A stretch of DNA of 45,848 nucleotides, taken from an uncultured Gammaproteobacteria bacterium. Its GTDB lineage: Bacteria > Patescibacteriota > Microgenomatia > UBA12405. This document shows, piece by piece, positions 1 to 19,401 of the stretch. The position numbers and the translations under genes were made by a program. The stretch covers positions 1,729 to 47,576 of the forward strand of contig CAYUZS010000002.1 of assembly GCA_964448705.1 (NCBI GenBank), read 5' to 3'. The notes beneath the pieces are model-generated. The model did not search any database. It had not been told where the DNA came from and was given only the letters and a program-made list of their open reading frames with translations. How positions within the stretch are numbered: position 1 is the stretch's first letter; each line of letters begins with the position of its first letter.

Positions 1-50
1 GAACGCCCCGCTGAGCGGGGAGGTCGCGGGTTCGAACCCCGTCTCCCGCT
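1..50 (+). tRNA. 3' part of a class II (long variable arm) tRNA cut by the window edge; Leu/Ser/Tyr class, isotype undetermined
   Basis: Read directly: variable-arm hairpin CCCCGC-TGA-GCGGGG, T arm GCGGG/TTCGAAC/CCCGT and acceptor 3' strand CTCCCGC. The anticodon lies upstream of the window. Confidence 0.6.
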
Positions 51-82
51 CTAAAAGATATAAGATTAAGTAGATAATCGAA

Positions 83-15518: not shown

Positions 15519-15872
15519 CTATTTTTTCGATGCTTTTTCTCCCAAAAATCCAAAAAGTGCTCCGAAAAACATCAGGCCTATCGGTCCGGTAATAAAAATA
15601 GTTAAACTGTATTTTCCCACCGAGTTTAATATTGAATTCAAGGTCAAATTATCCGGATCAGAAATATACAAAATCAACAACAGAAAAAATGCCAATAGAT
15701 ACGGAAATAATGCTGATATTAGACCATACAACCATCCTTTCTTCTTAATTAAAAAACCGACAAAAAAGGCAGTTAAGATCGAAAGTATTATTGAAACTAA
15801 TGTACCGTTATTTCCTTTTAACAGAACAAACAAAACCAATGCCACCAAGTTCAGAAGGATTACTTTTCTCAT
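15519..15872 (-). CDS. hypothetical small membrane protein
   Basis: The ORF-track ORF 15519..16133 runs through tRNA-Glu and the end of the ABC gene. It is trimmed to ATG 15872 (MRKVILLNLV..., 117 aa, 4 TM helices), 2 nt after the tRNA. Confidence 0.45.
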   Translation of the reverse strand: MRKVILLNLVALVLFVLLKGNNGTLVSIILSILTAFFVGFLIKKKGWLYGLISALFPYLLAFFLLLILYISDPDNLTLNSILNSVGKYSLTIFITGPIGLMFFGALFGFLGEKASKK

Positions 15873-15874
15873 TG

Positions 15875-15948
15875 TGACTCCTGTGGGAGTCGAACCCACG
15901 ATTGCCTGGATGAAAGCCAGGAGTCCTAGGCCACTAGACGAAGGAGCC
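15875..15948 (-). tRNA. tRNA-Glu (anticodon TTC)
   Basis: Reverse complement gives GGCTCCT-TCGTCTAGTGG...; anticodon loop CTTTCAT; T arm GTGGG-TTCGACT-CCCAC; acceptor AGGAGTC; discriminator A. Confidence 0.85.
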
Positions 15949-15972
15949 GCGTCTGGATATTTTATCAGATTG

Positions 15973-17751
15973 TCATGTTTCTTGGTAGCCTTTAGCCTGA
16001 AGATTGAAAGATTTGGCATAAAGACCTTTAAGTTTAAGTAAATACTGATGGCTCCCCTGCTCAACAATCTTTCCTTTATCAATGACAATGATTCTTTGGG
16101 CGTTACGTACGGTGGAAAAACGGTGGGAAACAATGATCAGAGTTTTATTTTGAATGGTTTTATAAAGACGGCTAAAAATTTTATTTTCAGAAACAGCGTC
16201 GATGGAGGCGGTGGGTTCATCGAGAAGAATAATCGGACTGTCCCGATAAAATACTCTGGCGATGGCAATCTTCTGCATTTGTCCCCAGGAAGGTTCCTCA
16301 CCGCCATAGCGGTGGCTCATAGGAGTATTAAGACCATCAGAATATTTGTTTATGAATTGAGCATCGGCTTTTTTGAGGGCGGTGATAACTTTGGGATCAT
16401 TAATGATTTGCGGTCGGCCGATGGTAACGTTTTCCCGAAGGGAAAGATTATGATAATGATTAAATTCTTGGGAAAGATAGGATAATTGGTTATACCAACT
16501 TTCAAGATCAATCTCTTTGAGATTGATACCATTGACTAAAATTTTACCGGAGTTCGGTTCGTAAAAATGACAAAGTAGTTTAATTAAAGTACTTTTACCG
16601 GCACCATTTTGACCGACAATGGCAATTTCCTCATTACTGTTAATCGTCAGATTTAAATTTTTAAAAACGTAGCGTTTAGAACAAGGGTATTTAAAGGTGA
16701 CATTTTGGAATTCAATTTTGGCAGGGATGGGGGGAGAAATTTTAACCGAGCCGCCATTGATATTATTTTTAAGATCCAAAACTTCCCGAAAATTACTGAT
16801 ATGGTAGCTGTTTTCAGTAATATTTACCGAGCTGTAAACTAAGCCACGAAAGAAATCGGAGGTTTGTTGAATAGTCTGAAAAAAGAAGGTGAAAAGACCA
16901 ACAGTTAGGATATTACTTTGAGCATCGGAAATTAAAACATAGAGACAAATTCCGTTTATTAGAACAGAAAGCCCGATCAGAAATAATTCACTGGGACTTC
17001 GTTTAATTCTGAGCTCGATACGGGAGTTAGTGAAGAAATTAAAGCTGTCCTGGAATTTTTGAAAAAGATAACCAACGGCGTTATTTATTCTTAATTCAGA
17101 AATATAGTTTTTGGAACGGAGTTGATAATTTAAATCCCACATCATCTTGTTTTTATCGCTGTTATCTTCCCTAATTTGCCAATCTTTCTGGATCCAAAAT
17201 TTTTCCACCAAATATTGAGGAATTTGAGAGATAAATATTAGAAGCCACAGTTGAGGGTAACGGGGCAGAATAATAATAGTGACGGCAATCAGACTAATAA
17301 AATTACTAAAAATATTACTAATATCCTGAACACTTTGACGGATGCGCCAGCCAAATTCCTCATCGACTTTAGAGATAAGATTGCCGGTTTTTTTGCCTTC
17401 AAGGTGTTGGTAATCAAGGTGAGAAACTTTGTTAATGAACAAGATCCGCAGTTGGCTTTGAAGTTTAGTATCTAAAATCCGGCTAAATTGACTCTGGAGG
17501 AAATAAAAAACAGAGGAAAAAACTAAAATAATAATAAAAATACTAAAGATTGTAAGGATATTATCCTGTTGTCGATAAACAATAGTGTCGAGAAGTTGGG
17601 AAAAAACTTTATTTCGAAAAAAAGGAATACCGGCAACCAGAACCTGAATACAAAAAATACCGGAGAAAAGCAGAGGGTTGAATTTAAAAATCAATCTTAG
17701 AGTCCAAAAAGTGTTACTTAAAATCTTTTTGTATGATTTTGACTTTTTCAT
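15973..17751 (-). CDS. ABC exporter, fused permease/ATPase (MsbA/ABCB-like)
   Basis: 592 aa. Six-TM domain, Walker A GQNGAGKST, Q-loop, Walker B ILLDEPTASID, H-loop VSHR. The signature motif is atypical (PSWGQ). Confidence 0.85.
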   Translation of the reverse strand: MKKSKSYKKILSNTFWTLRLIFKFNPLLFSGIFCIQVLVAGIPFFRNKVFSQLLDTIVYRQQDNILTIFSIFIIILVFSSVFYFLQSQFSRILDTKLQSQLRILFINKVSHLDYQHLEGKKTGNLISKVDEEFGWRIRQSVQDISNIFSNFISLIAVTIIILPRYPQLWLLIFISQIPQYLVEKFWIQKDWQIREDNSDKNKMMWDLNYQLRSKNYISELRINNAVGYLFQKFQDSFNFFTNSRIELRIKRSPSELFLIGLSVLINGICLYVLISDAQSNILTVGLFTFFFQTIQQTSDFFRGLVYSSVNITENSYHISNFREVLDLKNNINGGSVKISPPIPAKIEFQNVTFKYPCSKRYVFKNLNLTINSNEEIAIVGQNGAGKSTLIKLLCHFYEPNSGKILVNGINLKEIDLESWYNQLSYLSQEFNHYHNLSLRENVTIGRPQIINDPKVITALKKADAQFINKYSDGLNTPMSHRYGGEEPSWGQMQKIAIARVFYRDSPIILLDEPTASIDAVSENKIFSRLYKTIQNKTLIIVSHRFSTVRNAQRIIVIDKGKIVEQGSHQYLLKLKGLYAKSFNLQAKGYQET

Positions 17752-18337
17752 GGCTGATTAATGTTAATCCAAGAACAAAGAAAAGAATACTGATTAATTG
17801 GGCGATTTTGATTTCACTGACGGCCCAGGTATCAGAACGAAAAAATTCAAAAATAAACCGAATAAGACCGTAACCAATAAAATAATGAGCTGTTGGAGTT
17901 TTGGATTTTTTAAGAAGAAAGAAAAGAATTAAATTAAATGAGGCTTCCAGCCACCATAAAGGAATTTCCTGATTAACAAAATTGCCCAGACGGCCAATAG
18001 CCTGACATAAAGGTAAAACCGGAGAGATGGAATCAAGTAATGATAAAAAAGAATAACCTCCTAAGCGGCAGAAAATAAAAATGAACAGGAGAGATCCTAG
18101 GATACCACCATAGATTCCGAGTCCCCCGTTCCAGGTTTGGGGTATGAGCCATAGATTTTGGGAATAAAACGACCATTGGTCGATAACATGATAGAGTCGG
18201 GCGCCAATTATGGCGGAGAAAATAGTACCAAAAACAAATAAATTAAGCTGAGAAGAGGAAATGTGTTTTTGGTGTTTTAGAAAATATTCGATACCAATGA
18301 CAAAAGAAATACCTATAATTAGGCCGTAAAGATGCAT
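17714..18337 (-). CDS. lgt: prolipoprotein diacylglyceryl transferase (short form)
   Basis: HLYGLIIGISF, GGLGIYGGILG and GRLGNFVNQE motifs. Start trimmed to ATG 18337, because the upstream 21 codons of the ORF-track ORF are a tRNA-like sequence. The 3' end overlaps the ABC gene start by 38 nt. Confidence 0.75.
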   Translation of the reverse strand: MHLYGLIIGISFVIGIEYFLKHQKHISSSQLNLFVFGTIFSAIIGARLYHVIDQWSFYSQNLWLIPQTWNGGLGIYGGILGSLLFIFIFCRLGGYSFLSLLDSISPVLPLCQAIGRLGNFVNQEIPLWWLEASFNLILFFLLKKSKTPTAHYFIGYGLIRFIFEFFRSDTWAVSEIKIAQLISILFFVLGLTLISHEKVKIIQKDFK

Positions 18338-18339
18338 GC

Positions 18340-18412
18340 GGTGGGCCCTGCGAGGATCGGACTCGCGACCAATCCCGATAAATCGGGACTGTTCTACCAA
18401 TCGAACTTCAGG
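18340..18412 (-). pseudogene. tRNA-Lys-like pseudo-tRNA: intact T arm and 3' acceptor strand, palindromic 'anticodon arm', degenerate 5' acceptor strand
   Basis: 18340..18373 is identical (34/34) to the tRNA-Lys 3' part at 18657..18690. A D-arm-like GTTC-GATTGGTA-GAAC is present. The 5' strand AATCCCT cannot pair with AGGGCCC. The 5' third is the end of the GIY-YIG ORF. Confidence 0.6.
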
Positions 18413-18654
18413 GATTGTGAATTAATAACCTTTTCAATTATTTTACGACTTTTAAGTTTTTTTAGGTATTTTTCCATTTTGTTGGCAGAGGTGATATCCG
18501 GAAATTCTTGAAAAAATTCAAGTTTGATAGGAAGAAATTTTTTGGTAAAAGTGCTTTTGCCGGAGGAATGATCAATTATTCGTTGACTGATATTGGTTGT
18601 ACTGCCGATATAAAACTTATCGTTGCTGAGTCTTAGGATATATACCCAGGCCAT
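18394..18654 (-). CDS. stand-alone GIY-YIG nuclease domain protein (86 aa)
   Basis: WVYIL...FYIGSTTNISQRIIDH...KLEFFQEF...: GIY/YIG, Arg and Glu motifs of the GIY-YIG fold. The ATG lies 1 nt after the CCA of tRNA-Lys, and the stop TAG lies in the D-loop-like GATTGGTAG of the pseudo-tRNA. Confidence 0.75.
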   Translation of the reverse strand: MAWVYILRLSNDKFYIGSTTNISQRIIDHSSGKSTFTKKFLPIKLEFFQEFPDITSANKMEKYLKKLKSRKIIEKVINSQSLKFDW

Positions 18655-18655
18655 T

Positions 18656-18730
18656 TGGTGGGCCCTGCGAGGATCGGACTCGCGACCAATTGCTTAAAAG
18701 GCAACTGCTCTACCACTGAGCTAAGGACCC
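18656..18730 (-). tRNA. tRNA-Lys (anticodon TTT), CCA encoded, unusual T loop TCCGATC
   Basis: GGGTCCT/AGGGCCC acceptor, D arm GCTC-AGTGGTA-GAGC, anticodon arm GTTGC-CTTTTAA-GCAAT, T arm GCGAG-TCCGATC-CTCGC, ACCA. Confidence 0.85.
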
Positions 18731-18982
18731 AAATTGTTAAATAAGCGATGTTAAGGTAATCGCGACCAATCCCGATAAATCGGGACTGCTCTACCACTGA
18801 GCTAAGGACCCAAATTGTTAAATAAGCGATGTTAAGGTAATCGCGACCAATCCCGATAAATCGGGACTGCTCTACCACTGAGCTAAGGACCCAAATTGTT
18901 AAATAAGCGATGTTAAGGTAATCGCGACCAATCCCGATAAATCGGGACTGCTCTACCACTGAGCTAAGGACCCAAATTGTTA
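18731..18982 (-). repeat. three perfect 81-bp tandem units, each carrying a truncated tRNA-Lys 5' fragment with a palindromic replacement of the anticodon arm
   Basis: Unit 5' ends are at 18973, 18892 and 18811 (minus sense). The units are identical base for base. Each has GGGTCCTTAGCTCAGTGGTAGAGCAG, then TCCCGATTTATCGGGA, then TTGGTCGCGA, then a 29-nt spacer. Confidence 0.9.
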
Positions 18983-19309: not shown

Positions 19310-19401
19310 AGTTAATTATTTAATAATGAATTATTCTATCAGAAACTTTGGTATTTTATATTAACTAGCTTCAGTTATCAACCTGTAGATTATTTTGATT
19401 A

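Follow-up and report, generated by a model that had tools for sequence, protein, structure and literature searches.

Open reading frames set flush against tRNA 3' ends in a Patescibacteriota genome: a case for possible tRNA punctuation of leaderless mRNAs

Punctuation of transcripts by tRNAs was reportedly described for animal mitochondria by Ojala, Montoya and Attardi in 1981. Other systems in which a tRNA or a tRNA-like structure is joined to a message include the t-elements of plant mitochondria, i.e. tRNA-like structures that mark mRNA ends, and the thrU-tyrU-glyT-thrT-tufB transcript of Escherichia coli, a tRNA-mRNA co-transcript in which tufB has a long spacer and a Shine-Dalgarno (SD) sequence of its own. 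Here we describe three places in the genome of an uncultured bacterium (GTDB lineage Patescibacteriota; Microgenomatia; UBA12405) where an open reading frame (ORF) begins almost directly behind a tRNA gene or a partial copy of one: a membrane-protein ORF behind tRNA-Glu(UUC), a GIY-YIG nuclease gene behind tRNA-Lys(UUU), and lgt, the gene for prolipoprotein diacylglyceryl transferase, behind a partial copy of tRNA-Lys. All three lie on the minus strand of a 45,848-nt stretch (hereafter "the window"; contig CAYUZS010000002.1 of assembly GCA_964448705.1, positions 1,729 to 47,576), and coordinates are positions of this window unless a contig is named (Table 1). We consider it somewhat probable (roughly 55%) that the tRNA and the flush ORF are transcribed together and that 3' maturation of the tRNA yields a leaderless mRNA; co-transcription, processing and leaderless translation are each inferred from sequence and comparison.

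By analogy, the closest known system would be mitochondrial tRNA punctuation combined with bacterial leaderless translation. As in animal mitochondria, for which punctuation is described in the sections available of PMC3790967, tRNA genes abut protein genes, excision would set the mRNA 5' end at or near the AUG, and there is no SD signal, so that translation would be leaderless. The differences from mitochondria are that many promoters are present in a free-standing bacterial genome, that the arrangement involves no more than about 10% of its tRNAs, that a search for RNase Z gave none (see below), that mRNA 3' ends are not set by tRNAs, and that punctuation is here read from sequence. Promoter-made leaderless mRNAs, with the AUG at or near the 5' end and no SD, make up a large share of the transcriptome in Actinobacteria and mycobacteria, according to the sections available of PMC4633059, PMC3898074 and PMC3160421. 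The present genome resembles these in showing a -10 box 5-7 nt before starts genome-wide, whereas the three window genes have no such box and their 5' ends would be processed monophosphates rather than primary triphosphates. With the thrU-tufB operon the locus would share a tRNA promoter that drives a downstream protein gene, although a spacer of 0-8 nt leaves no room for a long spacer or an SD. The non-functional, tRNA-like copy directly before lgt could act as a processing signal in the manner of a t-element; unlike a t-element, it lacks the 5' acceptor strand and stems from a cassette insertion, and its processing is doubtful. We found no paper on tRNA-punctuated leaderless mRNAs in bacteria, subscription journals being outside the search.

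The gap between the discriminator base and the ATG is 2 nt for tRNA-Glu(UUC) and 4 nt for both tRNA-Lys(UUU) and the partial tRNA-Lys copy. At the first junction the discriminator A at 15875 is followed by C, A and the ATG of the membrane ORF (15872-15870). At the second, the encoded CCA ends at 18656 and is followed by a single A and the ATG of the GIY-YIG ORF (18654-18652), and at the third A-C-C at 18342-18340 is followed by G, C and the ATG of lgt (18337-18335). The initial annotation had placed all three junctions correctly, and had argued that they leave no room for a promoter or a ribosome-binding site. As regards the promoter this stands: none of the three ATGs has a -10-like hexamer 5-7 nt upstream, and neither promoter-like nor terminator-like sites were found at the junctions. 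A promoter inside the tRNA 3' parts was likewise rejected, there being neither a -10-like hexamer at 5-7 nt nor a promoter-like match. As regards the ribosome-binding site it fails in the strict sense at one junction, where the acceptor strand of tRNA-Glu contains AGGAG (15882-15878), 5 nt ahead of the ATG of the membrane ORF. We consider an SD-driven start there unlikely, because SD-like motifs are unenriched genome-wide and this one is paired in the acceptor stem. Co-transcription is suggested by tRNA-Glu's own extended -10 box and by the lack of anything promoter-like between tRNA and ORF; the box, the tRNA and the ORF form a compact unit.

Before the starts of 772 long ORFs in the window's own genome (G000), -10-like hexamers occur 44, 82 and 31 times at spacers of 5, 6 and 7 nt, against a background of about 9, and they precede 111 of 421 non-internal genes (26%) and 45 of 348 internal ones (13%) vs. 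1.4% in the background. SD-like motifs are unenriched, being found at 10.3% of non-internal and 6.7% of internal starts vs. 9.3% in the background; the 16S rRNA retains an anti-SD, ending CACCTCCTTT. Leaderless expression appears to be the normal mode in this genome, and an SD-less start, which had been noted for the three genes, is a property of nearly every gene and no special mark of them. Promoters of this kind also precede tRNA genes: for tRNA-Glu(UUC) and for tRNA-Gly(UCC) an extended -10 box stands 10 nt upstream of the 5' end, and 14 of 45 tRNA genes have a -10 box 10-12 nt upstream.

Behind four of the 46 tRNAs of G000 (Glu-UUC, Lys-UUU, Gly-GCC and Gly-UCC), an ORF of 80 or more codons opens with ATG 0-6 nt past the end called by ARAGORN, where 0.19-0.80 such tRNAs would be expected. 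For five relatives of the same family we took the surroundings of 150 listed tRNAs, in which ARAGORN found 182 tRNAs, 174 of them with enough downstream sequence. An ATG ORF of at least 60 aa begins at 0-6 nt behind 14 of the 174, vs. 1.85% of 6000 random positions; when GTG and TTG starts are allowed, the figures become 17 of 174 and 6.2%. We then pooled 217 tRNAs from six genomes of the family, again with ATG ORFs of at least 60 aa. In this set 23 starts fall 0-8 nt after the tRNA end, none of them with a -10-like hexamer 5-7 nt before the ATG; no start, and hence no hexamer, falls at 9-14 nt; and 19 starts fall at 15-30 nt, 10 with the hexamer at a spacer of 5-7 nt, 8 of these 10 also with an upstream TG. 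An even spread of these 42 starts across 0-30 nt would place about 8 of them at 9-14 nt. Promoter-bearing spacers between tRNA and ORF appear from 16 nt on, the -10 box often standing 5-7 nt before the ATG, and the least room that an extended -10 box with such a spacer can occupy is about 15 nt. Flush starts and promoter-bearing spacers therefore look like alternatives, both of which would put the RNA 5' end at or next to the AUG. Thus the genome-wide survey of tRNA-to-start distances, which had been proposed as a check, gives an enrichment near 0 nt in G000 and the five relatives and a bimodal distribution.

The genes so placed are a mixed set. Nine of 19 scanned flush or near-flush ORFs of the relatives contain Pfam domains (YkuD, CDP-OH_P_transf from residue 5, MGDG_synth, NAGPA, Ser_hydrolase, deaminase, GNAT, ASCH and GIY-YIG), and tRNA-Glu(UUC) is followed in three genera by three different flush genes, namely the membrane ORF, a CDP-alcohol transferase and a GIY-YIG gene. 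Given such diverse tRNA-gene pairs, flush pairs have arisen many times. In G000 a stretch a little upstream of the window (C2:268-653) holds tRNA-Gly(UCC) and an ORF that starts 5 nt past the ARAGORN end and encodes a cysteine-rich protein of 102 aa, for which no Pfam family was matched.

One may also consider that the tRNA-mRNA chimera is never cut, and that ribosomes initiate on it internally and independently of an SD, as for internal genes of operons. That SD-like motifs are unenriched in every gene class means that SD-free internal initiation or coupling must exist, and the AGGAG 5 nt before the ATG behind tRNA-Glu would also fit, as would the failure to find RNase Z. However, internal genes can lean on overlap or abutment with a translated upstream gene, whereas a gene behind an untranslated tRNA, where termination-reinitiation coupling is impossible, cannot, and a processed 5' end would therefore be the simplest route. 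As a matter of general knowledge, a folded tRNA immediately 5' of the AUG should hinder binding of the 30S subunit, and charging requires a freed tRNA 3' end in any case. Internal initiation would moreover leave unexplained why the class at 9-14 nt is empty and why flush starts and -10 boxes are alternatives, and we regard it as unlikely.

If the start codons were mis-assigned, or some of the ORFs were not genes, the true starts would lie downstream and leave room for ordinary signals. The GIY-YIG ORF, however, matches PF01541 from its first residue (E 2.9e-15, residues 1-70 on profile positions 1-74). In a comparison of 20 lgt loci from 20 genomes (the window, L001, and 19 relatives), the Lgt N-terminus M-[HS]-[LI]-Y-G stands at the same aligned codon, ATG or GTG, in all of them. 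In flush ORFs of the relatives the CDP-OH_P_transf, ASCH and deaminase domains begin 4-10 residues from the start. The weakest case is the membrane ORF, which was assigned to no Pfam or NCBIfam family, has one distant homologue and contains in-frame TTG/GTG codons at positions 9-14. A search of 5.8 billion proteins returned only the ORF itself, deposited as a 166-aa product (15519-16016) that reads through tRNA-Glu, an extension that is probably a mis-annotation by the gene caller. Its sole homologue, in genome G013 (32% identity), aligns from M1 with a shared basic N-terminus, and a contig scan with the alignment of the two again gave only this locus. The homologue starts 4 nt past the discriminator base of a tRNA gene that we read by eye as tRNA-Val(GAC), its 5' end being masked by Ns and ARAGORN making no call. 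Conservation thus backs the flush starts of all three genes, rather than starts further downstream, and we hold mis-assignment to be very improbable.

The lgt loci also reveal how two of the junctions in the window came about. In eight of the 19 relatives (L002, L003, L007, L008, L009, L010, L017 and L020) lgt begins 0-4 nt after an intact tRNA-Lys(UUU), while in three loci (L001, i.e. the window, L004 and L011) it begins 2-3 nt after a hairpin-bearing partial copy that stands behind a GIY-YIG gene. Since the flush junction is uninterrupted in relatives, the abutment of tRNA-Lys and lgt is, on this comparison, ancestral, and the cassette landed in the junction. The start of the GIY-YIG gene and that of lgt flank one inserted cassette, because of which the three junctions of the window are not independent, and the "three of three" of the initial annotation comes down to two events, the tRNA-Glu unit and an insertion at an old tRNA-Lys/lgt junction. 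Flush lgt has been maintained across genera at 43-66% protein identity. A -10-like hexamer 5-7 nt before the lgt start is found in none of the 11 flush loci vs. six of the nine others, and in G007 and G021 a TGnTAAACT box lies within a tRNA-lgt spacer of 19-22 nt.

The protein encoded by lgt in the window matches PF01790 (E 1.5e-42) from profile position 12, and scores 114.3 bits against TIGR00544, just below the cut-off of 118.9 bits, with an alignment that begins at profile position 23. In this family Lgt begins at a conserved YG motif, without the first 11-22 profile positions of canonical Lgt. The same junction has received a second type of insertion in L005 (G017), where (locus positions 161-275) tRNA-Lys has a flush 12-codon remnant of the lgt 5' end behind it and then an inserted permease-like gene; a full lgt lies 1.2 kb downstream, so that the lgt start is duplicated. 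Hairpin-plugged partial tRNA-Lys copies stand by tRNA-Lys with no adjoining GIY-YIG gene in L008 (G003), L009 (G015) and L013 (G002); a copy in L013 has its second hairpin in the T loop, and a copy in L008 has three hairpins. These GIY-YIG-free copies look like scars of lost cassettes.

The unit inserted at tRNA-Lys is about 320 nt long, and the 86-aa GIY-YIG ORF is the only one in it. The closest solved GIY-YIG chains are the UPF0213 protein BH0048 (1zg2, E 4.4e-6) and EF2693 (1ywl). The stop codon of the ORF falls in the D-loop remnant with which the partial tRNA-Lys copy begins. After this D-arm remnant the copy has an 18-nt hairpin (18389-18372) where the anticodon arm would be, and then the variable loop, the T arm and the 3' acceptor strand. 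Both ARAGORN and Rfam (E up to 1) call the two intact tRNAs alone and pass over the copy, which is probably the original 3' part of the tRNA gene, pushed away by the insertion. An integrase-borne genomic island at a tRNA 3' end was considered and rejected, as the insert holds only the GIY-YIG ORF and the duplicated part of the tRNA is plugged by a hairpin. To judge from these comparisons, the GIY-YIG gene and the hairpin-bearing partial copy are one small mobile cassette, and the filled and empty sites seen at this one locus among relatives are the pattern by which a homing-type selfish element is recognised.

By tblastn, G000 has seven GIY-YIG ORFs. Five of these lie at tRNA genes with hairpin-bearing partial copies, those for Lys(UUU), Gly(GCC), Ala(GGC), Ile(UAU) and Ser(GGA), and two (C7:29415 and C1:155160) have no adjoining tRNA. 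The hairpin sequence varies between cassettes. Outside the tRNA-Lys locus, the regions of cassettes and partial copies in G000 are C2:1239-1779, C3:167150-167707 with C9:1-111, C7:10700-11216, C4:84049-84350 and C3:153078-153258. The Gly(GCC) array opens 3 nt behind its tRNA, a little upstream of the window, spans an assembly gap and ends within the window at 1-51. Like it, the Ala(GGC) cassette forms a tandem array, and the two are interrupted by an assembly gap or contig ends. At tRNA-Thr(GGU) a hairpin-bearing 3' copy stands 77 nt further downstream, with no GIY-YIG gene. Among the relatives, G018 has flush GIY-YIG ORFs at tRNA-Lys and at tRNA-Ile(UAU), and G003 has one at tRNA-Glu(UUC).

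Two described systems resemble the cassette in part. SegB is a free-standing GIY-YIG homing endonuclease in the tRNA gene cluster of phage T4 (PMC2330249, in the sections available). Like it, the present gene lies among tRNA genes, and some relatives have it while others lack it, which fits a selfish element; unlike it, the protein is a bare UPF0213-type catalytic domain of 86 aa rather than a multi-domain endonuclease, and the gene is chromosomal, accompanied by hairpin-plugged partial tRNA copies and flush with the tRNA. The Ssn family (cd10448) comprises single-domain GIY-YIG nucleases associated with hairpin repeats, which cut single-stranded DNA site-specifically at a flanking hairpin motif, and the sections available of PMC11893778 make no mention of tRNA. 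The likeness to Ssn, a small stand-alone GIY-YIG protein beside GC-rich hairpin repeats, is one of hairpin association only, and here, unlike in Ssn, the hairpins differ per cassette and lie within tRNA gene copies. We found no paper on tRNA-embedded GIY-YIG hairpin cassettes, again with subscription journals outside the search.

The presence of such a cassette raises an alternative in which flush placement has no expression role at all, being a by-product of genome compaction and of the use of tRNA 3' flanks as landing sites, with some of the ORFs expressed weakly or not at all. A mobile cassette does account for two of the window's three cases, five of the seven GIY-YIG ORFs of the genome lie at tRNAs or partial tRNA copies, the gene behind tRNA-Glu(UUC) changes from genus to genus, and pairs of coding sequences are flush with each other about as often. 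Nevertheless, the flush genes include lgt, YkuD and CDP-alcohol phosphatidyltransferase, housekeeping genes that must be expressed, and flush lgt has been retained across genera at the identities given above. The gap at 9-14 nt, together with promoter boxes only where the spacing permits them, points to selection on how the 5' end is made. This explanation strikes us as less likely still than internal initiation on an uncut chimera.

Under punctuation by tRNAs, which we favour, tRNA genes would stand within transcription units or at their head, with the next gene flush against the tRNA 3' end. The tRNA-Glu unit would be transcribed from the tRNA's own extended -10 promoter, and tRNA-Lys probably from the rplS promoter or a weak promoter of the tRNA. 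Endonucleolytic 3' maturation of the tRNA would then create an mRNA 5' end 0-8 nt before the AUG, and the processed mRNA would be translated by the leaderless route already used for a large share of the genes. Within the window, the genes directly concerned would be the 117-aa membrane ORF and the GIY-YIG gene. The cassette would have entered the tRNA-Lys/lgt junction, where it uses the tRNA slot for its own expression, and would have moved lgt downstream together with the native tRNA 3' part to which it is still attached.

Several observations weigh against this model, the first of which concerns the nuclease. Canonical RNase Z was not found with TIGR02651, PF12706 or PF00753 in G000, a genome that is 97% complete; the best match to TIGR02651 (25.7 bits) lies within the RNase J ORF, and the MBL-fold proteins found comprise RNase J and a 494-aa beta-CASP protein, besides a ComEC-like ORF and a 200-aa ORF. 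Across 41 related genomes the RNase Z cut-off is never reached, and partial RNase Z-like ORFs occur in just six. Excision by RNase P and RNase Z, on the mitochondrial pattern, is thus not borne out as such. RNase II/R and RNase E/G were also not found in G000, while RNase J, RNase Y, PNPase and the CCA enzyme are present, and the RNase P RNA scores 81 bits, below its cut-off of 100 bits. All 46 tRNA genes of G000 encode C74 (32 C only, 4 CC and 10 CCA), C being about 19% of the bases in the genome. CCA is encoded by only 10 of the 46, being absent from 36, yet C74 by all, and some 3' maturation activity must therefore exist. The model would need a cutting nuclease other than RNase Z, for which RNase J, RNase Y and the 494-aa beta-CASP protein are candidates.

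The second concerns lgt: the step of which we are least sure is how its 5' end forms behind the partial copy. What had been counted as a third tRNA-type element is only a partial copy without an acceptor stem, so that its processing is doubtful: the 5' acceptor strand is missing, and folding gives strong hairpins and no cloverleaf, as it does for the other partial copies. A pseudo-acceptor pairing of 4-5 bp (CC[CU]UG with CAGG[GA]) is possible in three cassettes, which, with n=3 and a position inside coding sequence, proves nothing. In L004 the T stem of the partial copy is broken and lgt still abuts it. The lgt start codon is GTG in three of the 11 flush loci, and GTG is a poor start codon for leaderless initiation in E. 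coli. Third, in five genomes from five other families of the order only four of 164 tRNAs have a flush start at 0-8 nt, which is no enrichment, and the claim is therefore restricted to the window's family. Finally, 79 of 754 same-strand pairs of coding sequences in G000 lie 0-6 nt apart and 177 overlap, so that flush pairs are about as common there, and compaction alone would predict some flush tRNA-gene pairs. On balance, the punctuation proposed in the initial annotation gains from the evidence for true starts, the bimodal spacing and the leaderless norm, and loses by the SD argument, the count of three, the processing at the partial copy and RNase Z. A wider version, which we put forward only tentatively, is that tRNA genes serve as portable expression modules, in which a tRNA promoter and 3' maturation by an enzyme other than RNase Z would give leaderless mRNAs for any gene that arrives flush behind the tRNA, a bacterial counterpart of punctuation in mitochondria. 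Cassettes would exploit this slot, while the copy of the tRNA 3' end that they carry or displace would, in the manner of a t-element, keep lgt expressed and so render the insertion nearly harmless.

The remaining features of the region are listed in Table 1. Between rplS and lgt, the promoter-like site upstream of rplS is the single sigma-70-like match on the minus strand, and the order rplS, tRNA-Lys, lgt is found in several relatives too. Each of the three tandem 81-nt units between rplS and tRNA-Lys is made up of a 52-nt piece from the 5' end of tRNA-Lys, in which an 18-nt hairpin takes the place of the anticodon arm, and a 29-nt spacer. All three carry the same hairpin as the partial copy before lgt, and we read the units as debris or landing pads of the GIY-YIG cassette.

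Table 1. Features of the region, in window coordinates
Feature	Position	Strand	Remarks
Promoter-like site TTGATA, 17 nt, TAAAAT	19353..19381	-	upstream of rplS
rplS, ribosomal protein L19, 104 aa	18995..19309	-	PF01245, E 9e-27
Three tandem 81-nt units, starts 18973, 18892, 18811	18760..18973	-	
tRNA-Lys(UUU), intact, CCA encoded	18656..18730	-	ARAGORN; Rfam 68.9 bits
GIY-YIG single-domain nuclease gene, 86 aa, stop TAG 18396-18394	18394..18654	-	PF01541
Partial tRNA-Lys copy	about 18340..18407	-	34 nt 100% identical to tRNA-Lys positions 41-74
lgt, prolipoprotein diacylglyceryl transferase, 207 aa	17714..18337	-	PF01790
ABC transporter, 592 aa	15973..17751	-	38-nt overlap with end of lgt; stop 24 nt before tRNA-Glu
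Extended -10 box TGATAAAAT	15959..15967	-	10 nt upstream of tRNA-Glu 5' end
tRNA-Glu(UUC)	15948..15875, with C74 at 15874	-	57.6 bits; without encoded CCA
Membrane-protein ORF, 117 aa	15519..15872	-	nearly orphan
Terminal partial tRNA-Gly(GCC) copy, hairpin replacing anticodon arm	1..51	+	end of second GIY-YIG cassette array

If true, this would be tRNA punctuation in a bacterium, with RNA processing setting the translation start for about one tenth of tRNA-linked genes, lgt included. It would provide a test case for the layout of gene expression in SD-free, leaderless-prone CPR bacteria, and would lead one to ask by which nuclease the 36 tRNAs (of 46) encoded without CCA acquire their mature 3' ends, where RNase Z has not been found. 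It would also account for gene callers running ORFs through tRNA genes, as in the 166-aa product of the 117-aa ORF. Lastly, it would show a selfish nuclease cassette using the tRNA slot without harm to its host.

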